Under the pieces are notes generated by a model, which had not been told where the DNA came from, did no database searches, and saw nothing but the letters and a program-made list of their open reading frames with translations. Below, piece by piece: positions 19,081 through 43,659 of a stretch of DNA of 64,000 nt; positions within the stretch are counted from its first letter, which is position 1; each line of letters starts with the position of its first letter. A program made the position numbers and the translations under genes. Source of the stretch: Gammaproteobacteria bacterium (GTDB taxonomy: Bacteria; Pseudomonadota; Gammaproteobacteria; Eutrophobiales; Eutrophobiaceae); assembly GCA_021773235.1 (NCBI GenBank), contig JAJFKL010000048.1, positions 44,687 through 108,686 of the forward strand, read 5' to 3'.

Positions 19081-20013
19081 CTGGCAGATTATGTAAATAC
19101 TTTTGGCCAATCTATCAAGACACGTTACGGCAAGCGTGTTCATAAGATTGCTATAGATGCGACGTTTACTTGTCCCAATCGTGACGGTAGCAAAGGACGT
19201 GGCGGTTGTAGTTTCTGTAACAATGCTTCATTCAGCCCAAACGGGCTTAAACCTGAATCAATTTCATCTCAAGTTGATGCAGGAAAAGCGGTCATTAAAA
19301 AACGTACCGGCGCCCTGCACTACATTGCTTATTTCCAGGCATATACCAATACCTATGGCAACATAGATGAACTTCGCTCTACATATGATCAGGCACTCAT
19401 CCAGGAAAACATAGTGGGACTTTCGGTGGGAACCCGACCAGATTGTGTGCCAGAACCTGTTCTTGAGTTACTAGCCGAATATCAGCAGCAAGGTTATGAA
19501 GTATGGCTTGAGCTTGGTTTGCAATCGAGCTTTGATGAGACACTTATACGCGTCAATCGCGGACATGATTATCAAGAATATTGTGACGCTGTTGATGCCG
19601 CACATCGTTATAATCTTAACGTATGCACACACCTTATGCTTGGGCTTCCCGGTGAAGATAAATCACATGCGCTGGTTACATTGAAACGCGTATTATCACA
19701 AGGTGTTGCAGGATTGAAAATACACCCATTACATATTGTAAAAGGCACACGATTGGCTAATGAGTGGCGAGCAAACGAATATATTCCACTCTCATACAAT
19801 GACTATATTGAAACAGTATGTGACATGATCGAATTAACGCCGATGGAGGTCGTTTATCATCGTTTAACTGGTACAGCGCCGGATAAAATCCTGCTGGCAC
19901 CTGCTTGGTGTGGTGAAAAATGGAACGTGTTGAATGGAATCATGAATGAACTAAAACAACGAGGCACAAACCAGGGCTTTCATGATATTGCGAATAATTT
20001 ATACCCCGTATAA
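19081..20013 (+). CDS. TIGR01212-family radical SAM protein (YhcC-like); start codon unresolved
   Basis: The frame is open from 19036. N-terminus ..YVNTFGQSIKTRYGKRVHKIAIDATFTCPNRDGSKGRGGCSFCN is collinear with E. coli YhcC as recalled. The first canonical start in frame is GTG 19414, which would delete the Fe-S motif. Confidence 0.7.
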   Translation: MADYVNTFGQSIKTRYGKRVHKIAIDATFTCPNRDGSKGRGGCSFCNNASFSPNGLKPESISSQVDAGKAVIKKRTGALHYIAYFQAYTNTYGNIDELRSTYDQALIQENIVGLSVGTRPDCVPEPVLELLAEYQQQGYEVWLELGLQSSFDETLIRVNRGHDYQEYCDAVDAAHRYNLNVCTHLMLGLPGEDKSHALVTLKRVLSQGVAGLKIHPLHIVKGTRLANEWRANEYIPLSYNDYIETVCDMIELTPMEVVYHRLTGTAPDKILLAPAWCGEKWNVLNGIMNELKQRGTNQGFHDIANNLYPV

Positions 20014-20027
20014 GTAATCATAGAAGA

Positions 20028-21206
20028 TTAATGACCTATTGCCGTTAACTGGTTCATGATAGCCCGTTTTACTGGCCAAATATTGTTGCCCAGTCTAAGC
20101 ATGGTTTTTCTCATCAATCTTGCCGATAACATTTCATTATTATTATACAAACGAACAATTCCATTCGTTGCCAGATATAGTGGATGCGATGCGCGTCGAT
20201 GTATTGAGTGATAGCTTTCCAATACTGCTGGCGAAGCAATATCAACACCTCGCTTCAATGCAGTCTTTATCTCCCTGGCAAGCGTATTTTGTCCTTTTAA
20301 CCCTAAATTAAACCCATGTGCGGTTACCGGATGCATACCGACAGCAGCATCACCAATCAATGCAAAACGATTTGACACAAACTTATCCGCATAAACAGCA
20401 ACAAGTGGATAAGGAAACCGTTCACCGATCAGTTTCATTTTACCTAGGCGATGCTTGAATTGATGAGAGATATCATTATTAAATTTTTCTTCACTTAAAT
20501 TTAGTATTTCATTGCATCTATCAGTTGGCGCAGTTATTACTATTGATGATTGATTTCCTGTAAGAGGTAAAACAGCAAGTGTTCTACCATAATGAAAACA
20601 TTCATAGGCAATATTGCCATGTGATTTCTCATGTTCCATTCGGCACACAATAACAACCTGACCAAAATCTCGCATGCTGGCAGACAAGCCCACTTTGCGA
20701 CGCGTTTCTGAAAACCGACTATCGGCAGCAACAACTAACGTAGCATCAATCGTTTCTCCATTAGATAGTACGACAGATGCACCTTGATTATTATTACTTA
20801 CAGACATGACAGAGGTATCAGTCGATAACTCAATATTCGATAGCGCATCTAGATTTTCATACAGTGCCTTACGAATTAAATGATTAGACACAAGATATCC
20901 TAATGCGTCATGACAGACTCTTTTATGATCAAAATGCAAGAAGTATGATGATGTGCCATCTAATACTCTCGCTTCCTTTATCGGCGAGATAGCATTAGAA
21001 GAAATTTGAGGCCATGCACCAATCTCATTTAATAACTTAACAGAGAGATGCGTTAATGCAATATCGCGCCCATCAAAAGCAGGATAAGCTAGGGATTCTT
21101 TAGATGACTTTTCAACAATTAACACATTCAAATCAGTGTTTGCAAGTGAACGAGCAAAACTCAGCCCCGCTGGACCTGCTCCAATTATAACAACATCGTA
21201 TTTCAT
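20028..21206 (-). CDS. FAD-dependent ubiquinone-biosynthesis hydroxylase, UbiH/UbiF/VisC/Coq6 family
   Basis: YDVVIIGAGPAGL Rossmann fingerprint. GDAAVGMHPVTAHGFNLG motif. 392 aa. Confidence 0.8.
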   Translation of the reverse strand: MKYDVVIIGAGPAGLSFARSLANTDLNVLIVEKSSKESLAYPAFDGRDIALTHLSVKLLNEIGAWPQISSNAISPIKEARVLDGTSSYFLHFDHKRVCHDALGYLVSNHLIRKALYENLDALSNIELSTDTSVMSVSNNNQGASVVLSNGETIDATLVVAADSRFSETRRKVGLSASMRDFGQVVIVCRMEHEKSHGNIAYECFHYGRTLAVLPLTGNQSSIVITAPTDRCNEILNLSEEKFNNDISHQFKHRLGKMKLIGERFPYPLVAVYADKFVSNRFALIGDAAVGMHPVTAHGFNLGLKGQNTLAREIKTALKRGVDIASPAVLESYHSIHRRASHPLYLATNGIVRLYNNNEMLSARLMRKTMLRLGNNIWPVKRAIMNQLTAIGH

Positions 21207-21330: not shown

Positions 21331-21447
21331 TTGTTAACGGCAATTAGACTTAATCTAATAATATTTTTATTAAAATAGTGTTAGATAGTGTCTAAATTAA
21401 TTAAATAACTAACTTAATAGTTCAATTGTTAAGCCTAGACGATCATT

Positions 21448-21469
21448 AACTTTGATCTAGATCAAAGTT
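21448..21469. promoter_or_regulatory. 22-bp perfect palindrome containing a perfect FNR/ANR-type box (TTGAT-CTAG-ATCAA at 21452-21465)
   Basis: AACTTTGATCT/AGATCAAAGTT. Lies about 137 nt upstream of pqqA and about 250 nt upstream of the divergent ubiH-like gene. Confidence 0.6.
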
Positions 21470-21595
21470 ATTTGCATTAACTTATATAACGCCAAGTATT
21501 GGAACACACATTGCAAATTAGCTATTGTTGTTCGGATATTTATCGAATAATTAATAATGTATTTTAACTTATATTAAGACAAGAGGAGTTTTACT

Positions 21596-21670
21596 ATGCA
21601 ATGGGTTGATCCAGCTTATTGTGACTTGCGATTAGGTTTTGAAGTCACAGCATACGTTTACGTGCGCTAA
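21596..21670 (+). CDS. pqqA: PQQ precursor peptide PqqA (24 aa)
   Basis: MQWVDPAYCDLRLGFEVTAYVYVR closely resembles canonical PqqA (e.g. [23 protein letters not shown]) and keeps the E-x3-Y pair. GAGGAG Shine-Dalgarno about 7 nt upstream. Too small to appear in the ORF track. Confidence 0.85.
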   Translation: MQWVDPAYCDLRLGFEVTAYVYVR

Positions 21671-21760
21671 TTATAAAACCTGTATAAGGGAGAGTGACTG
21701 ACGCTATATTAGTCACTCTTCTTTTATTTTAATGAACATAAACACACGTTGTTTTTATTT

Positions 21761-22045
21761 ATGAACGAAACGATAACAATAGCTGCAGAGAATATTATTG
21801 AAATAAATCCCATGTATCTATTCCGATGGGAAGAACCACAACAAGCACACGTATTGCTATACCCCGAAGGTATTGTAAAAGTAAATGAAACGGGCGCTGA
21901 AATATTAAAACTCTGCAATGGAATTAAAACAGTTACAGAAATAATTTCTGAACTAAATGATAAATACAGCACAGACGTAACAGACAGCGTCAATAAATTT
22001 TTGGAGGTAGCCCATGCCAAAGGATGGATCAGAAGTAAGTCTTGA
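21761..22045 (+). CDS. pqqD: PQQ biosynthesis peptide chaperone PqqD
   Basis: About 94 aa. LYPEG.V.LNETGAEIL.LC.G..TV.EI...L motif pattern of PqqD. The ORF track starts at TTG 21749; ATG 21761 is more likely. Confidence 0.8.
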   Translation: MNETITIAAENIIEINPMYLFRWEEPQQAHVLLYPEGIVKVNETGAEILKLCNGIKTVTEIISELNDKYSTDVTDSVNKFLEVAHAKGWIRSKS

Positions 22046-23162
22046 TGGTTTAGGTATCCCAATGTGGCTTACCTTGGAGATGACATATCGATGTCCTCTT
22101 CATTGTCCTTGGTGCAGCAATCCTCTCGATTTTGATAAATTCAAAAATGAACTTTCAACCGATGATTGGAAACGCGTCCTACGTGAAGGTCGTGCTATGG
22201 GAGCTTTACAACTTGGGTTTACTGGTGGAGAACCCATGTTGCGCGATGATATAGAAGAACTCGTCGCCTATTCAACTGAACTCGGTTATTACGCTAACCT
22301 AATTACTTCCGGTATAGGTTTAACACCTGAACGTTTAAAGGCGATGAAAGATGGTGGCCTCAAGCAAATACAACTTAGTCTGCAATCAAGTGATCGTGAC
22401 ATCACCAATAAATTAGTTGGCGCTGATGTCTATGATCAAAAATTGTCAGTTGCTCATGAGATCAAGAGACAAGGTTTTCCAATGGTGTTAAATGTGCCTA
22501 TATGCAAACAGAATATTGGACAGACCAGAGATATTCTAGAATTAGCTGAAGAGCTTGGTGTTGAATATATTGAGTTTGCCAATATTCAGTATTACAACTG
22601 GGCACTTTTAAACCGTGCAGAGTTTTTGCCGACGAGAGAAGAAATCGAAGATGCCGAAGTGGCAGTTAAGGAAACCAGAGAACGTCTGGGTAAAAAAATG
22701 GAGATCTATTTTGTCATCCCGGATTATTTTGATGAACGTCCAAAGGCTTGTATGAATGGCTGGGGTGCTATTCATCTAACCATCGGTCCCGATGGTGCAG
22801 CACTTCCCTGTCAGGAAGCACGTATTATCAAAGGCTTTGAATTTCCCAGTGTTCTCGATCACTCACTGGATTGGATCTGGAATGAATCACCAGTATTCAA
22901 CGCATTCCGCGGCGAAGAATGGATGAAAGAACCTTGTCGAAGTTGTGATGAGAAAGAAAAGGATCATGGTGGTTGTCGTTGCCAGGCCCTTTTGTTGACT
23001 GGTGATGCCGCTAATACTGATCCTGTTTGTTCCAAGTCACCATTTCATGACTTAATTAAATCCAGTGTCGCTGAAACAACAAACGAACACAGAGTAGAAC
23101 GACCACTTGTGTATCGTAGAAAGGGAGCCATCACAACGGACTTTCTAGAAACAACAGAATGA
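22014..23162 (+). CDS. pqqE: PQQ biosynthesis radical SAM/SPASM enzyme PqqE
   Basis: WLTLEMTYRCPLHCPWCSNP (CxxxCxxC). C-terminal Cys-rich SPASM region (CRSCDEKEKDHGGCRCQA). 32-nt overlap with pqqD. Confidence 0.9.
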   Translation: MPKDGSEVSLDGLGIPMWLTLEMTYRCPLHCPWCSNPLDFDKFKNELSTDDWKRVLREGRAMGALQLGFTGGEPMLRDDIEELVAYSTELGYYANLITSGIGLTPERLKAMKDGGLKQIQLSLQSSDRDITNKLVGADVYDQKLSVAHEIKRQGFPMVLNVPICKQNIGQTRDILELAEELGVEYIEFANIQYYNWALLNRAEFLPTREEIEDAEVAVKETRERLGKKMEIYFVIPDYFDERPKACMNGWGAIHLTIGPDGAALPCQEARIIKGFEFPSVLDHSLDWIWNESPVFNAFRGEEWMKEPCRSCDEKEKDHGGCRCQALLLTGDAANTDPVCSKSPFHDLIKSSVAETTNEHRVERPLVYRRKGAITTDFLETTE

Positions 23163-23251
23163 AGCTGCCACATGAAACACTAGAAACTTCAGTTATTGCA
23201 GGAATCATCCTCACAATAGCATTGTTTGTATTGATTCGTGCATTAATTTGA
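23159..23251 (+). CDS. Candidate 30-aa single-TM micro-protein translationally coupled to pqqE
   Basis: Its ATG overlaps the pqqE stop (ATGA). Product: MKLPHETLETSVIAGIILTIALFVLIRALI. No homology evidence is available. Confidence 0.3.
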   Translation: MKLPHETLETSVIAGIILTIALFVLIRALI

Positions 23252-23390
23252 AGCAGTGATACATAAATTATGACCTATCCTCTATCCTCACTGTGGCACC
23301 GAAATATGTGATTGGTAACTTCCCATTTCAAACTTCACATTATTCTCGGTGCCACCATTTATTTAAATTATAAATTTTAGGAATTATTAA

Positions 23391-23885
23391 ATGACTCTTG
23401 CATTGATCTTAGATGTGATTGCCCGTTATTTACACATCATTAGTATTCTCGTCTGGATGGGACATAACTATGCCAATGTTATCCAGAACCCAACATTCAA
23501 ACCCGCGCAGCCATCAAATCGAGAAACAATGTCAGCAGCCATGAAACGTGAGCATGGGACGTTTCGTTATGCCTCGCTAGTCGCACTTGTGACTGGAATC
23601 TACATGCTTTGGTTTAGAGGTATGTTTTTAGATGCATTGACGCTATCAGGGCATGCTGTCGTTATGGGTGTCGGTGTATGGCTTGGGATTATTATGGTAC
23701 TCAATCTATGGTTTGTGCTTTGGCCACACCAGAAAAAAGTTCTGGGGTTTATTCCCGCTTCAGATGAAGAACGGATCCGCTGTTCGCGAATCACCTTCCT
23801 TTCTTCTCGTACCAATACAATATTATCCATTGCCACACTGTTTTTTATGATTAGTGGTGCTCATGGCATTGTCTTGTACCTCTAA
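23391..23885 (+). CDS. Integral membrane protein (about 4 TM), unknown family
   Basis: 164-aa hydrophobic ORF on the same strand as the pqq genes. AGGA-like Shine-Dalgarno upstream. Confidence 0.5.
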   Translation: MTLALILDVIARYLHIISILVWMGHNYANVIQNPTFKPAQPSNRETMSAAMKREHGTFRYASLVALVTGIYMLWFRGMFLDALTLSGHAVVMGVGVWLGIIMVLNLWFVLWPHQKKVLGFIPASDEERIRCSRITFLSSRTNTILSIATLFFMISGAHGIVLYL

Positions 23886-23903
23886 GACAAGAACGATCTA
23901 GCC

Positions 23904-24977
23904 GTGTTTAATTTTTCTTCCGGTCCTGCCATGTTGCCTAAGGAAGTGCTAGTTCAGGCGCAAGCAGAAATGCTGAACTGGAATGGCTCAGGCATGTCGG
24001 TAATGGAAATGCCATTTACTTGCGATGAATTTCAAAATATTGCGACGCAAGCACGGATCAATCTTAAATTATTATTAGACCTACCTGATAATTATCACAT
24101 CCTGTTTATGCAAGGCGGTGCATACGGGCACTTCTCTTTGTTGGCCATGAATCTATTAGGAAAAAACAAACAGGCCGATTACGCCCAAACGGGACATTGG
24201 TCAAGCAGAGCCATCAATGAAGCACAGCGTTATGGTGACATCAATATTGTTACGAGTTCAGTAGAGACCGGTTTTGATCACATACCTGAACAATCAAAAT
24301 GGGGGCTGAATAAAAAAGCAGCCTACTGCCATATTACATCTAATGAAACAGCAGATGGTGTACAGTTTCATTGGACACCAGGAACGGATAATATTCCATT
24401 AATCGCAGATGTGACATCAGACTTTTTAACTCGCAAAATTGATGTGCCCCAATATGGAATGCTCTATGCCAGTGCGCAAAAAAATATCGGTGCAGCAGGA
24501 TTAACTGTTGTTATTATACGAGATGATTTACTTGATCAAAGCATGGACATAACGCCAACAGTTTTTAATTATGGCGAACAAGCAAAAAATAATTCCAGGG
24601 TTAATACCTTACCAACGTACAGCATCTATATATCAGGACTCATCTTCAGATGGTTAATGGATCTTGGTGGTTTAGCTAAAATTGAGATCTTGAATAATAA
24701 AAAAGCTGAAGCACTTTATGCCGTCATTGATAATGATGAACAATACCAATGTGCTGTTAAGCCTGCGGCTCGTTCAAACGTTAACATTTGTTTTAATTTA
24801 ACTGATAGGTCATTGGAATCAGCCTTTCTTAAGGAAGCGACAAGCCTGGGTTTAATTAACCTAAAAGGACATGGCGCAAGAGGAGGCATTCGTGCCAGTC
24901 TTTATAACGCTATGCCGCAATCAGGCGTTGATGCATTGATAAGCTTTATGCAGGATTTTTCTGCAAAAAATGGATAA
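23904..24977 (+). CDS. serC: SerC-family (class V) aminotransferase; phosphoserine-aminotransferase-like but with a divergent substrate pocket
   Basis: GTG start. FNFSSGPAMLP N-terminus, PLP-Lys in YASAQKNIGAAGLT, C-terminal GGIRASLYNAMP. Residues I recall as phosphate ligands are substituted (see findings). Confidence 0.7.
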   Translation: MFNFSSGPAMLPKEVLVQAQAEMLNWNGSGMSVMEMPFTCDEFQNIATQARINLKLLLDLPDNYHILFMQGGAYGHFSLLAMNLLGKNKQADYAQTGHWSSRAINEAQRYGDINIVTSSVETGFDHIPEQSKWGLNKKAAYCHITSNETADGVQFHWTPGTDNIPLIADVTSDFLTRKIDVPQYGMLYASAQKNIGAAGLTVVIIRDDLLDQSMDITPTVFNYGEQAKNNSRVNTLPTYSIYISGLIFRWLMDLGGLAKIEILNNKKAEALYAVIDNDEQYQCAVKPAARSNVNICFNLTDRSLESAFLKEATSLGLINLKGHGARGGIRASLYNAMPQSGVDALISFMQDFSAKNG

Positions 24978-25785
24978 GCACGCCCTGCCCTCATTCCCGA
25001 TCAATATAATGGGGCTTGATTTTCCGAATCCAGTCGGGCTTGCCGCCGGTTTTGATCGTGATGGCAGTCAGATAAACAGTTTGAATAAAGCTGGTTTTGG
25101 TTTTATCGAGCTTGGCACTATTAATGTGAATTCCGAACTTGAATTTGATGATGAACTGGAAAACATTATTCGTAATTTAGAATATTCAAAAAATCAGCCT
25201 ACAAACCATGCGTTAGTTGGCATCAGTTTGGGAAGCTTAAGGGATGCTATTGATGAATATACTATTGCTGATTACCTTCAGGGAATGGAAAAATTTTGGC
25301 ATTATTCAGATTACATTGTAATCAACTTGAGTAGGCCAGGTAGCTCTGCACGTTCCGAAGTAAATAATAAAGAAGGTTTGCGTAGTCTATTACAAAAGAT
25401 CAAACAAGGTCATGTTGAACTTTGTGAAAAACAAGGCAAACATGTACCTATCATCACTAAGGTAGCAATAGAACACGAAGATAGAAAAACATTACCAGAA
25501 GCATTAAACATTGCTTATGAACAAGGGTTTGATGGTTTGTTAATAGCATTTGAACATTGGCCATCATCTGTCGATGTAATAACTACAGTGCGCGAAATTT
25601 CTGCATTGACAAATAAACTGCCACTGATCGTCGTTGGTGGTATTAAAACAGAAGATGAGGCATTACAAATATTAAATGCAGGAGCAAATCTTGTGCAGTG
25701 CTATAGCTTACTAGCTGATCAAGGGCCAACAAACGTAAAAAACATGGTCCGGGAACTAGCCCTAAAAACAAAAGAAAATCTATAG
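24970..25785 (+). CDS. Dihydroorotate-dehydrogenase-like TIM-barrel protein, truncated and degenerate
   Basis: MGLDFPNPVGLAAGFDRDG..GFGFIELGT and VVGGI....A.....GA.LVQ.YS blocks match class 2 PyrD. The N-terminal membrane helix and several catalytic blocks are absent. 8-nt overlap with the serC-like gene. Confidence 0.55.
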   Translation: MDKHALPSFPINIMGLDFPNPVGLAAGFDRDGSQINSLNKAGFGFIELGTINVNSELEFDDELENIIRNLEYSKNQPTNHALVGISLGSLRDAIDEYTIADYLQGMEKFWHYSDYIVINLSRPGSSARSEVNNKEGLRSLLQKIKQGHVELCEKQGKHVPIITKVAIEHEDRKTLPEALNIAYEQGFDGLLIAFEHWPSSVDVITTVREISALTNKLPLIVVGGIKTEDEALQILNAGANLVQCYSLLADQGPTNVKNMVRELALKTKENL

Positions 25786-25847: not shown

Positions 25848-26555
25848 TTATGAACACTTGGAGTCGCCGCAGTTCAGACACGTCATACATCCATCCATCA
25901 TAATCGAAGCCTTGGTTAAACATTTTTTACACAACTCTGCATTCTCGGGATAGTCACTCTCGCTATCATTACTACCCGATAAACGTTGTTCATGTTCTGC
26001 ACGTTTTTCCTTAATGAATTCTTTCTGGTGCTCGTCCAGCCCATCTTTTTTAAGAAGACCAATCATACACAAATGGTTTTCCAAAACATCACCAATCTCA
26101 GCTACAAGTGAAGGCATAAACTTCCCGCCTTTTTTAAAGTAACCGCCTTGCGGATCAAACACCGAACGGAATTCTTCAACCAAAAAAGTAATATCGCCGC
26201 CTTTTCGAAATACAGCAGAAACGATTCGGGTCAACGCAAGGATCCATTGGTAGTGTTCCATATTTTTAGAGTTAATAAACATCTCAAACGGACGACGCAG
26301 TTCATGGTCTGTATCTGGATTCAGGATGACATCATTAATTGTGACATATAGAGCATGCTCAGATAAAGGCGTGGTGATCTTGTACGTTGAGCCTTGAAGC
26401 ATAGCTGGACGTTCCAACTTTTCATGCATCTGCACGACATTATTACTATCCTCTGCCCGTCGGTTCTTATGATTCTTTGCCGACAATGTTTCCTCAGCAT
26501 TATCTTTGACAACAGTATATTCGGTGATTTTTTTATCAATTTTAATCGTCATCAT
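25848..26555 (-). CDS. nrdJb: Class II ribonucleotide reductase, small C-terminal subunit (NrdJb-like)
   Basis: 235 aa, immediately downstream (11-nt gap) of nrdJa. Cys-rich tail CKKC...DGCMTCLNCGDSKCS. This architecture is known from Pseudomonas split NrdJ. Confidence 0.65.
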   Translation of the reverse strand: MMTIKIDKKITEYTVVKDNAEETLSAKNHKNRRAEDSNNVVQMHEKLERPAMLQGSTYKITTPLSEHALYVTINDVILNPDTDHELRRPFEMFINSKNMEHYQWILALTRIVSAVFRKGGDITFLVEEFRSVFDPQGGYFKKGGKFMPSLVAEIGDVLENHLCMIGLLKKDGLDEHQKEFIKEKRAEHEQRLSGSNDSESDYPENAELCKKCLTKASIMMDGCMTCLNCGDSKCS

Positions 26556-26566
26556 ATATCCCCTAA

Positions 26567-28729
26567 TTAAAACTTACCGTAATAACCTTCTTTCAAGGCA
26601 TCATACAGATTGGCAGCTGTATGAGTTTCTCCATCGTATTCAATTTCTTCATTCCCTTTTGTCTCAATGACATCACCATTTTCCAAAACAAATTTATAAT
26701 ATGTATTTTCCAGATCTTCTTCTTTAACCAACACACCTTGAAAAGCTTCTGGATTAAAACGAAAAGTGGTGCAACCCTTTAATCCTTGTTCATATGCATA
26801 ACGATAAATATCTTTAAAATTATCGTAATCATGTTCTGTTGACACATTGATTGTTTTAGAAATAGATGAATCAATCCATTTTTGTGCAGCCGCTTGAATA
26901 TCGACATGTTGCTTTGGTGTAATATAATCACTGGTTATAAAGTAATCGGGCAATTGCTCTTCTGTCTTTTCCGAGGTGGGTGATGCATCTCGATTTATCA
27001 ATTCACGATAAGCCAACAGCTCATAAGAAAAGACATCCACTTTCTCCTTGCTCTTTTTACCTTCGCGTATGATGTTACGTGAATAATGATGTGCGAAACT
27101 CGGTTCAATGCCATTACTCGCATTATTGGCAAGCGATAATGAGATCGTTCCCGTTGGCGCTATAGAACTATGGTGCGTATAACGCGCTCCCACTTTTTCT
27201 AATTCATCGATCAATTCAGGCTCTATCTCATTTATCTTTTGCATATAACGACTGTAACGCGTATGCAAGGTCGAACCTTTGACCTGCTGACCTAGTTGAT
27301 AACCATCGTCTTTCATCTCTGGCCTTAGGCGTAACATTTCGGCAGTGATTTCAAACATCTCATCCATAATCGGTGCTGGCCCTTTTTCTTTCGCCAATTC
27401 TAGTGCGACCTGCCAACCCGTTAGCGCCAGATTTTGACTCACGTCTTCAGTAAATTTTATTGCATCGGCATCACCGTATTTCATCTTCAACATGGTTAAT
27501 GTTGAACCAAGCCCAAGAAAGCCCATGCCGTGACGACGCTTACGTAATATTTCATTTTCTTGATCTGATAGCGGCAAGCCATTAATTTCAACAACATTGT
27601 CTAACATGCGTGAAAACACACGCACGACCTCATTAAACTTCTCCCAATCAAACTCGGCATTATCACTAAACGGTTCTGAAACAAAATTGGTTAAGTTGAT
27701 GGAACCCAGTAGACACGCACCATAAGGTGGTAATGGTTGTTCGCCACAAGGATTGGTCGCACGTACGTTTTCACAAAACCAGTTGTTGTTAAATTCATTG
27801 ACTCGGTCTATCAGGATAAATCCCGGTTCGGCATAATCATACGTGGAGGCCATGATTGCATCCCACAATCGACGTGCCGGCAGGGTCTTATGAATCCGAC
27901 ATGCCACCAGTCCTTCATCGTTAGATATATAGTTTTCTGAGACAGGCCAATCACTCCAAATAATTTTTTCTGTATCGTCAAGATCTAGGCCATACTCTTT
28001 TGTTTCTTTTTCTTGAATTGGAAATATGAGTTGCCACAAATCATCATTTTCAACCGCTTGCATGAATTTTTCTGAAATAAGTAAAGAAAGATTGAATTGT
28101 CTTAAACGACCGTCTTCACGCTTGGCGCGGATGAAATCAAGCACATCGGGATGACGTATATCAAATGTTGCCATTTGCGCACCACGCCGACCACCAGCAG
28201 AAGATATGGTAAAACACATCTTGTCATAGATATCCATGAAGGACATCGGACCTGAGGTGTAGGCCCCCGCCCCAGCCACAAAATCACCTCGTGGTCGCAG
28301 TGTCGAAAATTCATAGCCAATACCACAACCTGATTTTAAAGTAAGACCTGCCTGGTGTATTTTTTGTAGAATATCATCCATAGAATCATGAATTATCCCC
28401 GACACAGTACAGTTTATTGTCGAGGTATGTGGTTTATATTGATCTGCGCCAGCATTAGATATAATCCGTCCCGCCGGGATGGCACCATGCTGAAGTGCCC
28501 AAAGAAATTTCTCATACCAGTATTCACATTTTTCTTTATCTTGTTCGAGGTCAGAAAGCGCGCGAGCAATACGAATATAAGTATCATTTATATCCTTATC
28601 TATTGCGGTGCCATCTTTATATTTGAGACGGTATTTTTGATTCCATATATCGACTGAGGTGGATTGAAACGGGATAGTCTTTTCACCCTCGGAAAGATCC
28701 ACAATAGATTTTTCATCTTTAAGCATCAT
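26567..28729 (-). CDS. nrdJa: Class II (adenosylcobalamin-dependent) ribonucleotide reductase, large fragment (NrdJa-like)
   Basis: 720 aa. RNR catalytic block ATNPCGEQPLPPYGACLLGSINL. No class I R2 gene adjacent. Confidence 0.8.
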   Translation of the reverse strand: MMLKDEKSIVDLSEGEKTIPFQSTSVDIWNQKYRLKYKDGTAIDKDINDTYIRIARALSDLEQDKEKCEYWYEKFLWALQHGAIPAGRIISNAGADQYKPHTSTINCTVSGIIHDSMDDILQKIHQAGLTLKSGCGIGYEFSTLRPRGDFVAGAGAYTSGPMSFMDIYDKMCFTISSAGGRRGAQMATFDIRHPDVLDFIRAKREDGRLRQFNLSLLISEKFMQAVENDDLWQLIFPIQEKETKEYGLDLDDTEKIIWSDWPVSENYISNDEGLVACRIHKTLPARRLWDAIMASTYDYAEPGFILIDRVNEFNNNWFCENVRATNPCGEQPLPPYGACLLGSINLTNFVSEPFSDNAEFDWEKFNEVVRVFSRMLDNVVEINGLPLSDQENEILRKRRHGMGFLGLGSTLTMLKMKYGDADAIKFTEDVSQNLALTGWQVALELAKEKGPAPIMDEMFEITAEMLRLRPEMKDDGYQLGQQVKGSTLHTRYSRYMQKINEIEPELIDELEKVGARYTHHSSIAPTGTISLSLANNASNGIEPSFAHHYSRNIIREGKKSKEKVDVFSYELLAYRELINRDASPTSEKTEEQLPDYFITSDYITPKQHVDIQAAAQKWIDSSISKTINVSTEHDYDNFKDIYRYAYEQGLKGCTTFRFNPEAFQGVLVKEEDLENTYYKFVLENGDVIETKGNEEIEYDGETHTAANLYDALKEGYYGKF

Positions 28730-32039: not shown

Positions 32040-32681
32040 ATGATTTCCCCTGCTTCCGACGGCATCTCTGAACTATGCGCTGATAATCTGCATTATGAAA
32101 TCAATGACAAATTGATTTTGGAAGGCGTTAGCTTCTCTGTGAAGTCCGGCGAAATGTTATTTATTGAAGGTAGCAATGGTAGTGGCAAAACAACCTTGTT
32201 GCGTATTCTTTCTGGATTGATGCAATCTGATGAAGGCAAGGTAAACTGGAACGGTAAAGACATAGAAGATGAACGTATTGAATATAATCAACAGCTGACC
32301 TATCTCGGACATAGCACAGGCGTCAAAGCTGAATTGAGTACATTGGAGAACATAAACTTCTTTTCTGCTCTTTCCGGCTTGCCGCAAAAAGAGAATGCTC
32401 AAACGGCAATGGAATGGGTCGGTTTAAAGGGTTATGAAGATAACCCGGGCAGACATTTATCTTATGGCCAACAACGTCGTATTGCATTAACGCGATTGTT
32501 GATGGAACCATCACAAATCTGGATCCTTGATGAACCCTTCGCCGGACTGGATAAAAAAATGATTAGTGCTTTAGAAACACGATTTAAAGAACATGTACAT
32601 GATGGTGGCTTACTAGTGTTAACAAGTCACCAGCATATTGAGTTAGATCAAGTAAATACTTCGCGCCTTCAGTTAGGATAG
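32040..32681 (+). CDS. ccmA: Cytochrome c maturation (System I) heme exporter ATPase CcmA
   Basis: Walker A GSNGSGKTT, signature LSYGQQRR, Walker B WILDEPFAGLD. First gene of a ccm operon. Confidence 0.85.
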   Translation: MISPASDGISELCADNLHYEINDKLILEGVSFSVKSGEMLFIEGSNGSGKTTLLRILSGLMQSDEGKVNWNGKDIEDERIEYNQQLTYLGHSTGVKAELSTLENINFFSALSGLPQKENAQTAMEWVGLKGYEDNPGRHLSYGQQRRIALTRLLMEPSQIWILDEPFAGLDKKMISALETRFKEHVHDGGLLVLTSHQHIELDQVNTSRLQLG

Positions 32682-32688
32682 ATACTCA

Positions 32689-33369
32689 ATGAATTATAGT
32701 AATACTTTCTTAGCCATGTTGTTTCGAGATCTTCGAATTGCCTTTCGGCAACGTGCAGAGATTATGTTACCCGTCATCTTTTTTGTCGTTGTTGTTAGTT
32801 TATTTCCTCTTGCGATCAGCCCTGATCCCACTGTTTTGAAAAGTATTGGCCCTGGCGTAATCTGGATCGCGGCCTTGTTATCAATTTTATTATCATTGCA
32901 AAGTTTGTTTCGCTCTGATTTTAACGATGGATCCATGGAGCAAATTTTATTGAGTCCATTCCCCGGATCATTATTGATGTTGGCGCGAATAGTCGCACAG
33001 TGGTGCGTAACCGGTTTACCATTAATTATTATTTCGCCTTTGTTAGGACTGTTATTACACCTCGACGCTCATGTTATTTTGGTTCTCTTTATTTCATTAT
33101 TATTAGGCGTGCCCTATTTAAATATGGTTGGTGCCATTGGTGTTGCATTGACCATAGGCTTAAGACAAGCAGGCGCATTGCTGTCGTTACTGGTTTTACC
33201 TTTATATGTACCCGTATTAATCTTTGGTAGTAATGCCGTTATCTCGGCAGCTAACGACTTGCCTTATAATGGACAATTATTATGGTTGGCTGCGCTATTA
33301 GTTATTGCAACGACACTGAGTCCATTTGTGATTAGTTCAGCCCTTAGAGTATCCTGTAGCTATAGATAG
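32689..33369 (+). CDS. ccmB: Heme exporter membrane protein CcmB
   Basis: 226 aa, polytopic. Position between ccmA and ccmC. Confidence 0.85.
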   Translation: MNYSNTFLAMLFRDLRIAFRQRAEIMLPVIFFVVVVSLFPLAISPDPTVLKSIGPGVIWIAALLSILLSLQSLFRSDFNDGSMEQILLSPFPGSLLMLARIVAQWCVTGLPLIIISPLLGLLLHLDAHVILVLFISLLLGVPYLNMVGAIGVALTIGLRQAGALLSLLVLPLYVPVLIFGSNAVISAANDLPYNGQLLWLAALLVIATTLSPFVISSALRVSCSYR

Positions 33370-33415
33370 ATTGATTGATAAGTTCATTATTAAACCTCGG
33401 AGAATTAAATAGAGC

Positions 33416-34171
33416 ATGTCTGTAAAAGATAAAGTTTGGTTGTGGTTCCACCGCATGGCATCACCAGCTTATTTTTATAAACTGGCAGGACAACTCTTGC
33501 CCTGGTCTATCGTCGCCACAATAATTTTAATGTTGATTGGTTTAGTTGGTGGTCTGGTATTTGCCCCTGCAGATTATCAACAAGGCGATGGTTTCAGAAT
33601 CATCTATGTACATGTCCCTGCAGCATGGATGTCAATGTTTGTATATATGGTCATGGCAGTTAACAGTGCTATATTTTTAATCTGGCATATTAAACTCTCT
33701 GATATTGTTGCTCGTTCCAGTGCCGTGATAGGCGCCTCATTTACATTTCTGGCATTAGTTACTGGTTCTATTTGGGGCAAACCTATGTGGGGGACATGGT
33801 GGGTTTGGGATGCCCGTTTAACCTCTGAGTTATTATTATTATTTTTATATCTGGGATATATCGGTCTACGTTCAGCCATTGATGACCGCCGTGTTGCAGG
33901 AAAAGCGGCTTCTATTCTGGCATTAGTCGGCGCAATAAATATTCCTATTATTCATTATTCTGTAATTTGGTGGAACACCTTGCATCAAGCACCCAGTGTT
34001 TCCAAATTTGATAACCCTTCTATTGAAATGAATATGTTAATTCCCTTATTGTGCATGGCGATTGCTTTTAAACTATTTTACCTCTGCATACTCTTAATTA
34101 ATTCGCGTTCTGAATTACTGGAACAGGAAAAACGTAGCAACTGGGTTAAAGAACTGGTGACATCCTCATGA
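33416..34171 (+). CDS. ccmC: Heme exporter/heme-handling protein CcmC
   Basis: WWD motif WGKPMWGTWWVWDARLTS. 251 aa. Confidence 0.9.
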   Translation: MSVKDKVWLWFHRMASPAYFYKLAGQLLPWSIVATIILMLIGLVGGLVFAPADYQQGDGFRIIYVHVPAAWMSMFVYMVMAVNSAIFLIWHIKLSDIVARSSAVIGASFTFLALVTGSIWGKPMWGTWWVWDARLTSELLLLFLYLGYIGLRSAIDDRRVAGKAASILALVGAINIPIIHYSVIWWNTLHQAPSVSKFDNPSIEMNMLIPLLCMAIAFKLFYLCILLINSRSELLEQEKRSNWVKELVTSS

Positions 34172-34332
34172 TCGAATTTCTTAAAATGGGCGGTTATGCC
34201 GCTTATGTTTGGTCATCCTATGGTATTGTTGCTGTCGTTTTGCTTCTGAATGGAATTTCTTCATGGCGGCGCTATCAAAGTTTACTGCTACGTCTCAAAC
34301 GATTACATGGTGAAAACAATAATGACACCTAA
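34168..34332 (+). CDS. ccmD: CcmD (54-aa single-TM protein)
   Basis: ATG overlaps the ccmC stop (ATGA). Product: MIEFLKMGGYAAYVWSSYGIVAVVLLLNGISSWRRYQSLLLRLKRL.. Canonical position and size. Not in the ORF track (under 60 aa). Confidence 0.7.
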   Translation: MIEFLKMGGYAAYVWSSYGIVAVVLLLNGISSWRRYQSLLLRLKRLHGENNNDT

Positions 34333-34777
34333 ACAAAAACAACGTTTTATTTTAATTAGCCTGTTGGTGGTTGGCCTTGGTGCAGGCATCGGTCTGGTAC
34401 TAATGGCATTAAATGAAAACATTAATTTATTCTTCACGCCTTCACAGGTTGTTGCAGGTGAAGTACCTCCCGATCAACGATTTCGTATTGGTGGCATGGT
34501 GACAGAGGATAGTGTTGAAAAACTTGATGGCGAATTAACTGTTCTGTTTAAACTCAATGATTCAGTCAAAGAAGTACAGCTTAAGTATGCCGGAATTTTG
34601 CCTGACCTGTTTCGTGAAGGACAAGGTATCGTTGCAGAAGGGAAATTGAATCAAGAAGGTGTTTTTATCGCTGATCAAGTATTAGCTAAACATGATGAAA
34701 ACTATATGCCGCCAGAAGTTGAACATGCATTAAAAGTAAGTGGTGGTGATTACTATAATAATGAGGCAAAAGAATGA
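34322..34777 (+). CDS. ccmE: Heme chaperone CcmE
   Basis: LAKHDENYMPPEV heme-binding His motif. The start at the MTPKQKQRF Met overlaps the ccmD end. The 34250 start in the ORF track would overlap ccmD. Confidence 0.9.
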   Translation: MTPKQKQRFILISLLVVGLGAGIGLVLMALNENINLFFTPSQVVAGEVPPDQRFRIGGMVTEDSVEKLDGELTVLFKLNDSVKEVQLKYAGILPDLFREGQGIVAEGKLNQEGVFIADQVLAKHDENYMPPEVEHALKVSGGDYYNNEAKE

Positions 34778-36756
34778 TCCCTGAATTAGGTCACTTTGCA
34801 CTAATCCTGGCGCTTGCTGTCGCATTAGTACAAGCCATTATCCCGGGAATGGGATTGTTACGTCGTCGTGTAGATTGGATGGCCGTTGCGAAGCCTGCGG
34901 CTATTATACAATTTGCCTTAGTATTATTCGCCTATGGAATACTGACCTATTCCTTCATCGTGCACGACTTTTCTGTGCTCTATGCAGCGAACACATCTAA
35001 TTCTGAACTGCCTTTAATTTATCGTATATCAGGCGTTTGGGGGGCTCATGAAGGCTCATTATTATTATGGGTTTTAATACTCAGTGCCTGGACCGCAATA
35101 CTGGCAATGTACAGTAAACATTACCCCGACGACATGACCGCGGGCGTTATTTCGGTATTAGGTTTTATCAGCATTGGTTTTTTGTTATTTAGTTTATTTA
35201 CATCGAATCCTTTTATTCGTCACTTCCCTGCTCCTATAGATGGAGGCGACCTAAATCCCTTATTGCAAGATCCGGTGATGGCAATACACCCGCCTATGCT
35301 TTATATGGGCTATGTCGGTTTTGCAGTACCATTTGCCTTTGCAATTGTGGCGTTGGTTCAGGGTAGGCTCGATACGGCCTGGGCACGTTGGGTACGTCCA
35401 TGGGCGCTAACAGCATGGGTCTGTTTAACGGGTGGCATTACTTTAGGAAGCTGGTGGGCCTATTACGAATTGGGTTGGGGCGGCTGGTGGTTCTGGGATC
35501 CTGTTGAAAACGCATCATTCATGCCGTGGTTAACAGGTACCGCATTAATTCACTCACTCGCTGTAACAGAAAAACGTCATGCTTTACGCAATTGGACTAT
35601 TTTGTTAGCTATTATCTGTTTTTCTTTAAGCTTGCTAGGAACATTCCTGGTGCGTTCCGGTGTATTAACATCGGTACATGCCTTTGCATCTGATCCTACC
35701 CGAGGTGTCTTTGTATTAGGCTTTCTAGGCTTGGTTGTCGGTATCTCTTTAAGTTTATTTGCCTATCGTGCCTGGCAATTACGAACGCTTACACCCTTTA
35801 GCTTGATCTCTCGAGAGATGGCCTTACTGACTAACAGTGTGCTTTTATTAGTCACGATGTTAACGGTGTTATTAGGCACACTATACCCATTGATACTGGA
35901 AGCATTGGGTGGCGGAAAAATATCTGTTGGACCGCCCTACTTTAGTCGTGTTTTTATTCCTCTAATGATCCCAGTGGTTTTCCTGGTCGCAGTCGGCTCT
36001 TTAATACGCTGGCGTGAAGATAGCCTCTCCACTCTGATTAAACAATTACGCACACCAGCTGTTCTTGCCGTTGTTTTTGCAAGCGTGTTATCACTTCTTC
36101 TTCCTGGGAAAGCGAGCTTAACAGCCTGGTTTGCACTACTGCTTACTTTCTGGGTTATCAATAGTTGTTTTGTGCAGTTACAACAACGATTACGACATTC
36201 TCAAAGTTTGATGCAAGGTTTAAGAAGAACACCGCGAGGATGGTATGGCATGATATTGGCTCATATTGGCCTAGGCTTTACTGTTGTCGGGATAGCGCTT
36301 TCCAGTGTTTATAGTCAGGAGCAAGACGTACACATGGTAAAAGGTGACGCTAGAACACTAGGCGAGTATCGCTTTGAGTTAGTGGACGTTGAAAGAATAA
36401 CCGGACCAAACTATCAAGCTGACATGGGCACAATTCGTATTTTCAAAAATGACACAGAATTAATGACTTTGCATCCAGAAAAACGTATTTATAACGTTCG
36501 CAAAAACATCATGACAGAAGCCGCTATCCATTCTAATTTGTTAAGAGATTTATATGTTTCTCTCGGCGAACAACGAAACGCTGTAACTGGCGCATGGTCA
36601 GTTCGGCTTTATTACAAACCCTTTATCTTATGGATTTGGTTGGGTGGACTTTTCATGGTCTTGGGTGGACTGCTAGCTGTAACGGACAAACGTTATCGTC
36701 TAGAAGTTAAACAAGAAAAAATTAAACTGGATGAAAATCATGTCACAGCCAGCTGA
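34774..36756 (+). CDS. ccmF: Cytochrome c heme lyase subunit CcmF
   Basis: 660 aa. WWD motif WGGWWFWDPVENASFMPW. Confidence 0.9.
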   Translation: MIPELGHFALILALAVALVQAIIPGMGLLRRRVDWMAVAKPAAIIQFALVLFAYGILTYSFIVHDFSVLYAANTSNSELPLIYRISGVWGAHEGSLLLWVLILSAWTAILAMYSKHYPDDMTAGVISVLGFISIGFLLFSLFTSNPFIRHFPAPIDGGDLNPLLQDPVMAIHPPMLYMGYVGFAVPFAFAIVALVQGRLDTAWARWVRPWALTAWVCLTGGITLGSWWAYYELGWGGWWFWDPVENASFMPWLTGTALIHSLAVTEKRHALRNWTILLAIICFSLSLLGTFLVRSGVLTSVHAFASDPTRGVFVLGFLGLVVGISLSLFAYRAWQLRTLTPFSLISREMALLTNSVLLLVTMLTVLLGTLYPLILEALGGGKISVGPPYFSRVFIPLMIPVVFLVAVGSLIRWREDSLSTLIKQLRTPAVLAVVFASVLSLLLPGKASLTAWFALLLTFWVINSCFVQLQQRLRHSQSLMQGLRRTPRGWYGMILAHIGLGFTVVGIALSSVYSQEQDVHMVKGDARTLGEYRFELVDVERITGPNYQADMGTIRIFKNDTELMTLHPEKRIYNVRKNIMTEAAIHSNLLRDLYVSLGEQRNAVTGAWSVRLYYKPFILWIWLGGLFMVLGGLLAVTDKRYRLEVKQEKIKLDENHVTAS

Positions 36757-37327
36757 TACTCAAACAACATCGCAAGAAAATAAACCAAAGCGCTGGGTTT
36801 ATCTTTTGCCATTGGGTCTGTTTGCCGTACTCATGGTGTTTTTCTTTTTTGGGCTTGGACTCAACCCCCGATTAATACCTTCACCTTTAATCGGCCAGCC
36901 AGCACCTGAGTTTTCATTGCCAAAACTAAGCAACCCTAATGAATTAATTCAGCATACGGATTTGAAAGGCGAAGTTAGTTTGTTAAATATTTGGGCAACG
37001 TGGTGTACCTCTTGTCGACAAGAACACCCTGTTTTGATGAAGATAGCTGAAAGCAAGGAAGTGCCTATCTATGGTTTATATTATAAAGACGTTCCTGAAC
37101 AAGGAGTCGTTTGGTTACAAAATTATGGAAATCCATACCTTGAAAATGCCGTAGATGAAGATGGGAAAGTCGGTATCGAATGGGGTGCTTATGGAACACC
37201 TGAAACATTTCTTCTCGATCGAGATGGAATTATTCGCTACAAGCACGTTGGCCCTATTAGCTGGCATGAATGGGAAACCAAATTACTACCTATGATCGAT
37301 TCATTAAGGAAGAATAATGATGTCTAG
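36731..37327 (+). CDS. ccmG: Thiol:disulfide oxidoreductase CcmG/DsbE
   Basis: N-terminal TM anchor. WATWCTSC thioredoxin CxxC motif and GAYGTPETFL block. An alternative start at 36740 is possible. Confidence 0.85.
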   Translation: MKIMSQPADTQTTSQENKPKRWVYLLPLGLFAVLMVFFFFGLGLNPRLIPSPLIGQPAPEFSLPKLSNPNELIQHTDLKGEVSLLNIWATWCTSCRQEHPVLMKIAESKEVPIYGLYYKDVPEQGVVWLQNYGNPYLENAVDEDGKVGIEWGAYGTPETFLLDRDGIIRYKHVGPISWHEWETKLLPMIDSLRKNNDV

Positions 37328-37787
37328 GCTTACTTGCTTGTGCCTATTGTTATTCTTTGTAACGACAGTCTCTGCAGAAATCGCTGGATTTCCATTTGAA
37401 AGCGAAGCACAAGAACAACGCTTTCGTGATCTATCGTCCGAACTTCGTTGTCTAGTTTGCCAAAATCAATCTCTGGCAGATTCTAATGCAGGCTTAGCTC
37501 AAGATCTTCGCTCAGAATTATATGAACAGGTTCTAACGGGCAATTCGAGTAATCAGATCATTAGCTTTATGACTGAGCGTTATGGTGATTTTATTTTGTA
37601 CAAACCCAGGTTTGCGACGAAAACATTATTTCTCTGGTTAGCACCTTTTCTCTTATTCATTGTCGGCGTTTTCTTTTTAATCAGGTTTAGCAAGCTTCGA
37701 AATCAAACTCAATCTATTGGCGCAACTGAAGAAGAATTACAAAAAATACGTGAACTGCTACAAGCAGAGGAAAAAGAAAATCAATGA
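37317..37787 (+). CDS. ccmH: Cytochrome c maturation protein CcmH
   Basis: LRCLVCQNQSLADS (LRCxxC) motif. 156 aa with a C-terminal TM helix. Confidence 0.85.
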   Translation: MMSRLTCLCLLLFFVTTVSAEIAGFPFESEAQEQRFRDLSSELRCLVCQNQSLADSNAGLAQDLRSELYEQVLTGNSSNQIISFMTERYGDFILYKPRFATKTLFLWLAPFLLFIVGVFFLIRFSKLRNQTQSIGATEEELQKIRELLQAEEKENQ

Positions 37788-39001: not shown

Positions 39002-39047
39002 TCATAAAGCTTTTATTTGCTGCAGTGCGATATTTCATTTAAAGCAA

Positions 39048-39089
39048 TGGTACCAAATATTAACAATATCTTGGTACTACTCTAGTACC
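39048..39089. promoter_or_regulatory. Direct repeat TGGTACCA-N16-TGGTACTA plus an adjacent inverted half-site (TAGTACC), upstream of haoA
   Basis: TGGTACCA 39048-55 and TGGTACTA 39072-79. GGTACTA-ctc-TAGTACC is a 7-bp inverted repeat (39073-39089). The identical 32-bp architecture recurs at 41906-41937. Confidence 0.6.
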
Positions 39090-39180
39090 TCTGTAAAGAC
39101 TAGTATCCCTGTAGGGTATCACTGAATTCTATATTCGGTGTTGTTGTGGCTTTGGTCCACAATCATTTAGGGGATAACAC

Positions 39181-40692: not shown

Positions 40693-40804
40693 ACTGATTA
40701 TTGCTTAACCCCATACAACAGGTAACAAGGATGTTACCCTGTGCATGGGATCTATCAGTTTTAGTATTCCTCTAAAACTTCACACATCACATATTCTTAT
40801 AAAA

Positions 40805-41884: not shown

Positions 41885-41905
41885 TATTTTAATCGCTGTA
41901 CGCAT

Positions 41906-41937
41906 TGGTACCATAAACAAAACAACCATTGGTACTA
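41906..41937. promoter_or_regulatory. Direct repeat TGGTACCA-N16-TGGTACTA upstream of the MocR-type regulator gene
   Basis: TGGTACCA 41906-13 and TGGTACTA 41930-37. Lies about 66 nt upstream of the GTG start at 42004. Same half-sites and spacing as 39048-39079. Confidence 0.6.
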
Positions 41938-42003
41938 TCAATTATCGAATTAGACCTGATATATTAGAACCATCATCATTAATGTTATGCATGCAATGTA
42001 GGG

Positions 42004-43497: not shown

Positions 43498-43659
43498 CAG
43501 TAGCAGTACATTAGTTATTTTCTCTTCTGAATATCTATCACGGTCCTTTCTCCACAGGATCGACTTAGGCTATACTTCGCATCCAAATTGAAATAGGGGC
43601 ATTTATCTCCAGCAACAAATCTATTTCATTAGCTGCAAAAATAAACAAAATCAGGTTAT

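Follow-up and report, generated by a model that had tools for sequence, protein, structure and literature searches.

The 64-kb stretch of DNA analysed here (the window) belongs to contig JAJFKL010000048.1 of a gammaproteobacterial genome assembly. In it, three genes of pyrroloquinoline quinone (PQQ) synthesis, pqqA, pqqD and pqqE, are followed on the same strand by four genes that differ from those of canonical pqq operons. As far as can be judged from the sequence, the region is most likely a single FNR-controlled operon of seven genes, all on the plus strand: pqqA, pqqD, pqqE, a gene for a 30-aa peptide, and genes for a short DUF989 membrane protein, a SerC-like protein and a dihydroorotate dehydrogenase-like (DHODH-like) protein. 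Below we refer to this set as the cassette.

With the canonical pqqABCDE(F) operons of Klebsiella, Pseudomonas and Methylobacterium the window shares the Glu-x3-Tyr motif of PqqA, the chaperone PqqD and the radical-SAM/SPASM cyclase PqqE. The pqqA gene (21596-21670) encodes a 24-aa precursor, MQWVDPAYCDLRLGFEVTAYVYVR, which reads ...GFEVTAY... around the intact motif (Glu16, Tyr20) and scores above the cut-offs of both PF08042 (38.4 bits) and TIGR02107 (30.6 bits). Cassette PqqA peptides have conserved features of their own, namely a Cys ahead of the DLRLGFEVTAY core and a VYVR tail, and their consensus, W.DPAYCDLRLGFEVTAYVYVR, was found again in relatives. Directly 3' of pqqA, on the same strand (21686-21724), there is a stem-loop with a T-run, resembling a terminator or an attenuator (16 pairs and the tail TATTTTAATG in the terminator scan), which was also recovered in the inverted-repeat search. 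It is arranged in the same way in the related locus L004, and canonical pqq operons also have a hairpin after pqqA. The gene for the peptide chaperone, pqqD (21761-22045; TIGR03859, 87.9 bits against a cut-off of 46; PF05402), encodes 94 aa counted from the ATG, with an alternative open reading frame (ORF) start, TTG, at 21749; its end overlaps by 32 nt, likewise in relatives, with pqqE (22014-23162), encoding the radical-SAM/SPASM PqqA peptide cyclase (TIGR02109, 498.5 bits, cut-off 381). The latter protein aligns over the full length with the solved Methylobacterium PqqE, 6C8V (354 bits).

Unlike the canonical operons, the window contains neither pqqB and pqqC nor a protease gene, be it in the operon or anywhere in the 64 kb. 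For pqqB and pqqC, tblastn probes and Pfam scans of all large ORFs were used, and both genes were found neither between pqqA and pqqD/pqqE nor elsewhere in the window. The same tblastn probes were positive in four relatives (loci L055, L061, L088 and L093), and hence they are able to detect real pqqB/C.

The place after pqqE is taken by the four other genes. The start codon of the 30-aa micro-ORF (23159-23251) overlaps the pqqE stop (ATGA); it is followed by the gene for the 164-aa DUF989 protein (23391-23885), which matches PF06181 partially, in the middle of the model only (43.6 bits). Next come the gene for a paralogue of SerC-family aminotransferases dependent on pyridoxal phosphate (PLP) (23904-24977; TIGR01364, 452.8 bits, cut-off 443.6) and, overlapping it by 8 nt, the gene for a DHODH-like TIM-barrel protein of the short form, 271 aa (24970-25785). 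As the cassette genes overlap or abut, their translational coupling is suggested. The initial annotation had proposed essentially this layout: PqqA with an intact motif, followed by pqqD and pqqE with pqqB and pqqC missing between pqqA and pqqD, a micro-ORF for a transmembrane peptide at the pqqE stop, a 164-aa protein with four transmembrane helices, a SerC-family enzyme with substituted pocket residues, and a DHODH-like barrel overlapping it. All of these held up in the profile searches, structure prediction and residue comparisons.

To see the cassette in other bacteria, we used the window PqqE as a query against one genome per species and considered the best 80 loci (62-94% PqqE identity). 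Wherever the contig reaches, the order pqqE, short DUF989, SerC-like, DHODH-like is retained (80/80), while the flanks are unrelated, and the micro-ORF was detected in 80 of the 83 loci searched with a hidden Markov model built from 40 copies. The order of the five genes from pqqE to the DHODH-like one, which the initial annotation had suggested to check in relatives, is thus conserved. Six metagenomic loci on long contigs (PqqE identity 90, 81, 78, 74, 69 and 69%) all contain pqqA-D-E, DUF989, Aminotran_5 and DHO_dh genes, the genes around them being entirely different. The carriers among the best 80 loci come from three proteobacterial classes: Gammaproteobacteria (metagenome-assembled genomes from Guaymas Basin, Methylophagaceae, Thiotrichaceae), Betaproteobacteria (Methylotenera, Methylophilaceae, Novimethylophilus, Thauera, Azoarcus, Aromatoleum, Dechloromonas, Denitromonas, Methyloversatilis, Hydrogenophaga) and Alphaproteobacteria. 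The closest match to the window PqqE in this set is a Guaymas Basin metagenome-assembled genome (94% identity); a literature search on the complete relative CP070821.1 yielded nothing. Since the same three genes follow pqqE in every locus that is long enough, these PqqE proteins constitute a clade defined by the cassette; and the order, kept in 80/80 loci of three classes with unrelated flanks, is strong evidence that the downstream genes are functionally linked to pqqADE.

The AlphaFold2 model of the short DUF989 protein (mean pLDDT 88.7) shows four long helices. Their counterparts in the catalytic domain of the urate oxidase PuuD are helices I, II, V and VI; a cytochrome c domain is lacking. 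The protein thus corresponds to a short DUF989 variant with just these helices, which was shown beside PqqD/PqqE in Suppl. Fig. S13 of Doniselli et al. 2015 (PMC4562309). PuuD is a membrane urate oxidase that does not produce H2O2 and in which the DUF989 core is catalytic (PMC4562309); the window protein shares with it the conserved membrane core of these four helices and, probably, the oxidation of a carboxylated or N-heterocyclic substrate with O2 not being the direct acceptor. On the other hand, PuuD consists of an eight-helix DUF989 domain with a C-terminal cytochrome c, whereas the window protein has four helices without the cytochrome, is found in a different gene context and is paired with a conserved 30-aa peptide. 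In 79 sequences the invariant residues comprise four His, two Met, three Trp and seven Arg/Glu, including H15, H25, H55, H158, R12, R53, E54, R59, R128, R133, R140, M102 and M153; going by the published topology of PuuD, most of the charged ones would be situated on the cytoplasmic side. As no solved structural relative of the model was found (all E > 1), it is the invariant His and Met residues by themselves that would suggest heme or metal binding.

The 30-aa peptide, MKLPHETLETSVIAGIILTIALFVLIRALI, is predicted to be a single membrane helix. It is conserved as a protein across loci whose upstream regions vary in GC content from roughly 26 to 73% (for example, MKLPHETPAGTVLAGALLTIILALTVRFLIGA in L008, MKTPFDTATGTIVLGLLLTLGLFLIVRWLVLGA in L035 and MRHPYDTARGTIALGIVLTLVLAALVRLLAG in L089), in most loci its first codon overlaps with the stop codon of pqqE, and it has already been called as a gene in L003, L007, L008 and L012. 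Going by these comparisons, the micro-ORF is a real gene, the seventh one of the cassette, and its product is plausibly a subunit of the DUF989 protein. Between it and the DUF989 gene lies a hairpin with the invariant loop motif AACTTCCCATTTCA (23293-23355, plus strand), confined to the closest clade of the window; the alignment of the seven closest loci gave 16 predicted pairs, four of them with compensatory changes. The hairpin, which has no Rfam match, may be an element of mRNA processing or stability.

The SerC-like protein is about 45% identical to SerC of Escherichia coli. In 76 cassette copies, compared in the E. coli numbering, the PLP lysine and the residues contacting the cofactor and the alpha-carboxylate are retained (W102, T153, D174, Q197, K198, T240, H328 and R335 are invariant). 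The opposite is seen at positions 41, 42, 77 and 329, where E. coli SerC has His41, Arg42, Arg77 and Arg329, residues that hold the phosphate group of the substrate or, when glutamate is bound, its gamma-carboxylate: His41 is replaced by Phe in 76/76, positions 42 and 77 are never Arg, and in almost every copy R329 has given way to Pro, Gly, Ser or Ala. In the window protein, positions 41, 42, 329 and 77 are Phe, Thr, Gly and Tyr, respectively. Thus, the distal (phosphate or gamma-carboxylate) pocket is, by residue comparison, remodelled, and, with the phosphate-pocket residues lost and the PLP residues kept, the protein would be an aminotransferase fold with a changed side-chain pocket rather than a phosphoserine aminotransferase. 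A second class-V aminotransferase in L002 was considered as the housekeeping SerC and rejected, being only 17% identical to E. coli SerC.

The DHODH-like protein scores below every NCBIfam PyrD cut-off, while its AlphaFold2 model (mean pLDDT 91.6) is a TIM barrel with E. coli DHODH (1F76) as the best structural match (TM-score 0.77). Its family is small (24 clusters at E <= 1e-30), and true PyrD aligns with it only in three pieces. In the comparison of 71 cassette copies (PyrD numbering) the residues contacting flavin mononucleotide (FMN), A62/G63, N172, K217 and G296/G297, are invariant, and the protein probably binds FMN. The substrate side is different: the catalytic Ser175 is retained in only 4/71 copies, the window having Arg; of the orotate-binding residues, Asn177 is Gly in the window, and the loop of Asn111 and the region of Asn246 are deleted in 71/71. 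Both long and short forms are common. The N-terminal helices of the quinone-site domain are present in L004, L002 and L005 and absent in the window, where two in-frame stops occur 11 codons upstream of the ATG. The possibility that the 271-aa protein is a degenerate one-off was rejected, as other short forms (255-273 aa) are found repeatedly, both in the same clade and outside it.

As the active-site changes are clade-wide, both the SerC-like and the DHODH-like proteins are specialised paralogues and not housekeeping enzymes. In public databases the relatives of the short DUF989 protein are named 'urate hydroxylase PuuD', and those of the DHODH-like protein 'dihydroorotate dehydrogenase' or 'hypothetical protein' (P0134, P0151, P0167; P0393, P0396; P0489). 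The residue analysis indicates that the names 'urate hydroxylase PuuD' and 'dihydroorotate dehydrogenase' are wrong.

Upstream of pqqA, the inverted-repeat search revealed a perfect palindrome of two 12-nt arms with 100% complementarity (21447-21470); it had been annotated initially as 22 bp long and in fact spans 24 bp, whereas its perfect symmetry and the FNR box in it were described correctly. The box, TTGATCTAGATCAA at 21452-21465, matches the FNR/ANR/DNR-type consensus perfectly and starts 144 bp upstream of the pqqA ATG, and in all close relatives with upstream sequence available an FNR box is found at -128 to -144 from pqqA. Among 77 loci, 26 have a perfect box upstream of pqqA and 15 more have a box with one mismatch, with about one expected (background, 0.015 per 400 bp). 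The window as a whole contains six perfect TTGAT-N4-ATCAA boxes versus 0.33 expected by chance, all of them intergenic and within 8-29 kb (8307, 11929, 13975, 18087, 21452 and 28894). In this order, they precede a DUF1538/P-II operon, an FHA/cyclase gene, hemN, a divergent hemerythrin/PhyH pair, pqqA and the class II ribonucleotide reductase gene, which looks like a local cluster of operons of the FNR regulon.

In relatives, at least one anaerobic-marker neighbour of the cassette is present in 37/86 loci, and ubiU/ubiV, encoding the O2-independent ubiquinone hydroxylases, are located within 10 kb of it in 21/86; the genes often met nearby are ubiUV, nar, nos and nrdD. The cassette of Methylophaga nitratireducenticrescens has narGHJI on one side and nosRZDFYL with nrdD on the other, and in the closest relatives of the window (L004, L015, L016 and L019) a gene for a YhcC-like protein and then ubiU-ubiV-ubiT-ubiD lie just upstream of pqqA. 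Judging by the boxes and the neighbours, the cassette seems to be turned on at low oxygen. The UbiU/UbiV/UbiT pathway follows the same logic, in that alternative late enzymes under FNR-type control act in place of O2-dependent hydroxylases in making a quinone cofactor; however, its protein families are unrelated to those of the cassette, and the UbiUVT route has been shown experimentally, whereas that of the cassette is a proposal.

In the window, the YhcC-like radical-SAM gene (19138-20013, plus strand) is 82% identical over the full length to its L004 counterpart; it has GTT where the L004 protein begins, and no canonical start codon ahead of the Cys motif. A c-di-GMP riboswitch has been tabled beside a pqqA gene of M. 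nitratireducenticrescens (PMC12530212); upstream of pqqA in the window, no riboswitch was matched by Rfam, even at E <= 1.

In the four loci mentioned above (L055, L061, L088 and L093) pqqB and pqqC are found within 10 kb of the cassette. In L055 the genes form a single series on one strand, pqqB-C-A-D-E-DUF989-serC-like-DHODH-like, while in L093 the order is pqqE-DUF989-serC-like-DHODH-like, then pqqB-C-A-D. L088 has two different pqqA genes, one in pqqA-B-C and the other in pqqA-D on the opposite strand. A second pqqE was not detected within the fetched stretches of L055, L088 and L093. The early module is thus found with both late gene sets, which fits two alternative late branches sharing one pqqE.

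A similar cluster has been noted before. According to section 2.9 of a 2025 paper (PMC12423496), a 'pqqAED-puuD-serC-pyrD' cluster is present in Hyphomicrobium denitrificans (Hden_0548-0553) and five other denitrifiers; that section further reports its co-regulation, in H. denitrificans, with genes for denitrification and anaerobic ubiquinone synthesis, and puts forward, as speculation, that it provides O2-independent PQQ synthesis. The view current in the field, stated for instance in a 2024 paper (PMC11102522), is that PQQ synthesis needs O2. As far as that section describes the H. denitrificans cluster, the window has the same gene set and order, with the same three atypical proteins, encoded on one strand, and both are tied to anaerobic or denitrification regulation, the link in the window being drawn from its sequence alone; the window copy differs in coming from an uncultured low-GC marine or sediment gammaproteobacterium. 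Hence, the cassette analysed here is a real further example of a cluster noted in the literature. Of the suggestion in the initial annotation, that alternative tailoring enzymes form an undescribed variant of the pathway, the linkage of the downstream genes to pqqADE stands (80/80 loci), while 'undescribed' does not (PMC4562309, PMC12423496). The other suggestion made there, a split pathway with pqqB and pqqC elsewhere in the genome, is compatible with alternative tailoring enzymes; the organisms listed in PMC12423496 all carry canonical pqqABCDE as well. In its passages on 'pqq', PMC12423496 mentions neither the gene for the 30-aa peptide nor an FNR box nor the active-site signatures.

The gene identities, their conservation, the active-site signatures and the enrichment of regulatory sites described above are observations; all chemistry that would follow PqqE is our inference. 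PqqB is an iron- and O2-dependent hydroxylase, and PqqC is an O2-consuming eight-electron oxidase. In the interpretation that we consider most likely, and hold with moderate confidence, the cassette would yield PQQ, or the compound directly preceding it, under oxygen shortage by a late pathway independent of O2, with PqqB and PqqC replaced by enzymes that send electrons to the respiratory chain and not to O2. By homology, PqqD would present PqqA to PqqE, which would form the O2-independent carbon-carbon cross-link between Glu and Tyr, and a protease encoded outside the cassette would release the cross-linked pair. Oxidation or hydroxylation of the phenol ring could then fall to the DUF989 protein together with the 30-aa peptide, the oxygen coming from water and the electrons entering the membrane chain; going by the PuuD topology, the arginine-rich invariant face of this protein would be cytoplasmic, and it would be well suited to a substrate with several carboxylates. 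The N-C(COOH)-CH2 desaturations by which the pyrroline and tetrahydropyridine rings become aromatic might be the work of the DHODH-like flavoprotein; the conversion of dihydroorotate to orotate is the same bond chemistry. The SerC-like enzyme, in which the scaffold binding glutamate or 2-oxoglutarate is kept, may act on the glutamate-derived amino-acid end, as its enlarged uncharged distal pocket would fit a glutamate with the tyrosine ring on the gamma carbon. This step is the least clear one, and, as PQQ keeps both nitrogens, the aminotransferase reaction is the weakest part of the scheme.

A possible user of the product is encoded in the window itself: the gene at 58267-59379 (minus strand; PF07995, 448 bits), with a homologue in L005 at 5 kb from the cassette, belongs to the GSDH family, to which the soluble PQQ-dependent glucose/sorbosone dehydrogenases are assigned. 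The stronger statement, that the cassette is a self-sufficient O2-independent route from PqqA to PQQ, and the only PQQ pathway of this lineage, whose genome would then lack pqqB and pqqC, seems doubtful to us.

Several observations weigh against an O2-independent late pathway. An aminotransferase has no obvious place in the PQQ pathway, both amino nitrogens being retained in PQQ. The protease gene is found neither in the operon nor in the window; the N-terminal helices, which make up the quinone site in class 2 DHODH, are missing from the window DHODH-like protein; and in the loci with adjacent pqqB and pqqC the three proteins could cooperate with PqqB and PqqC instead of replacing them. As regards regulation, the perfect FNR box is found in only about a third of loci, all hosts of the cassette appear to be facultative aerobes, and in the window the ubiUVT-ubiD block is absent, its place being occupied by a gene for the O2-dependent UbiM on the opposite strand (20028-21206, minus strand). 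Finally, for experimental characterisation of the cassette the literature searches gave only the supplementary figure of 2015 and the proposal of 2025.

We considered three other explanations. The downstream genes could be unrelated housekeeping neighbours, namely serC, pyrD and a gene for a membrane protein following pqqE by chance, with an ordinary split pathway and pqqB/pqqC elsewhere; in favour of this are the names assigned to the neighbours by databases ('dihydroorotate dehydrogenase', 'urate hydroxylase PuuD') and the score of the SerC-like protein, which passes the SerC equivalog cut-off, if only just. This is very improbable, given the linkage in 80/80 loci from three classes, the overlapping or abutting genes that suggest translational coupling, the loss of the SerC phosphate-pocket residues in 76/76 copies, and the loss of catalytic and orotate-binding elements in the DHODH-like protein, which misses all PyrD cut-offs. 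Alternatively, the cassette could turn the cross-linked Glu-Tyr into a different product, namely a quinone or quinoline, related to PQQ or deaminated, that is a cofactor or a metabolite; the aminotransferase would then take away one amino group or move it elsewhere. PQQ itself needs no aminotransferase, the SerC-like distal pocket is remodelled consistently, and both the peptide (the conserved Cys and the VYVR tail) and the cyclase (a separate set, with 80/80 best hits of the cassette type) are distinct from other PqqA and PqqE; nevertheless, PqqA, PqqD and PqqE all pass PQQ-specific equivalog models, and we know of no alternative product of Glu-Tyr. Moreover, in L055, L088 and L093 the cassette pqqE is the only one detected alongside pqqB and pqqC, and therefore the same cross-linked intermediate would feed PQQ; this layout argues against an unrelated product and is compatible with cooperation of both late sets. 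All in all, we regard a different product as unlikely.

About as improbable, in our opinion, is that the three proteins and the peptide are helpers, supplying electrons from the quinone pool to PqqE at low oxygen, or handling, salvaging or exporting PQQ or its intermediates, while PqqB and PqqC encoded elsewhere perform the late chemistry with trace O2. Such a role would be consistent with pqqB and pqqC being adjacent in four loci, with the set including a membrane protein and a flavoprotein whose long forms have a quinone-site domain, and with all the published carriers, as listed in section 2.9 of PMC12423496, also having canonical pqqABCDE. However, a PLP aminotransferase with a pocket remodelled as if for a substrate is ill-suited to electron supply; the DHODH-like protein keeps the barrel and the FMN residues with the substrate side rebuilt, which points to a new substrate and not to lost catalysis; and in PuuD it is the DUF989 core that carries out the catalysis.

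Denitrifying methylotrophs rely on PQQ-dependent dehydrogenases also in the absence of oxygen. For an O2-independent route to PQQ the cassette is the only concrete genetic candidate, whose basis in the literature is one speculative paragraph in section 2.9 of PMC12423496. With the comparative evidence, this speculation becomes a hypothesis that can be tested sharply on defined genes and residues. The evidence consists of the universal linkage of the downstream genes to a distinct clade of PqqE, a seventh gene previously unmentioned, the clade-wide rebuilding of the SerC and DHODH active sites, the enrichment of FNR boxes, the adjacency to ubiUV, nar, nos and nrdD, and the loci in which pqqB/C and the cassette genes share one pqqE. 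If the O2-independent pathway is real, it would bring a new family of membrane oxidases and two cases of enzyme repurposing, and would change the way PQQ-dependent metabolism in anoxic habitats is deduced from genomes. In addition, the analysis flags a systematic misannotation of cassette proteins as 'urate hydroxylase PuuD', 'dihydroorotate dehydrogenase' and 'phosphoserine aminotransferase'.

Some other features of the window are to be mentioned. The class II (B12-dependent) ribonucleotide reductase is apparently encoded in two parts, a catalytic ORF of 720 aa (26567-28729, minus strand) and a separate 235-aa ORF, which carries the C-terminal TSCPD domain (25848-26555, minus strand). Further along, at 32040-44631 on the plus strand, there is a complete ccmABCEFGH operon of cytochrome c maturation, then a gene for a 503-aa multi-haem cytochrome (PF13447, 486 bits), and downstream of the latter a second CcmH/CycH-like gene (43660-44631, plus strand).

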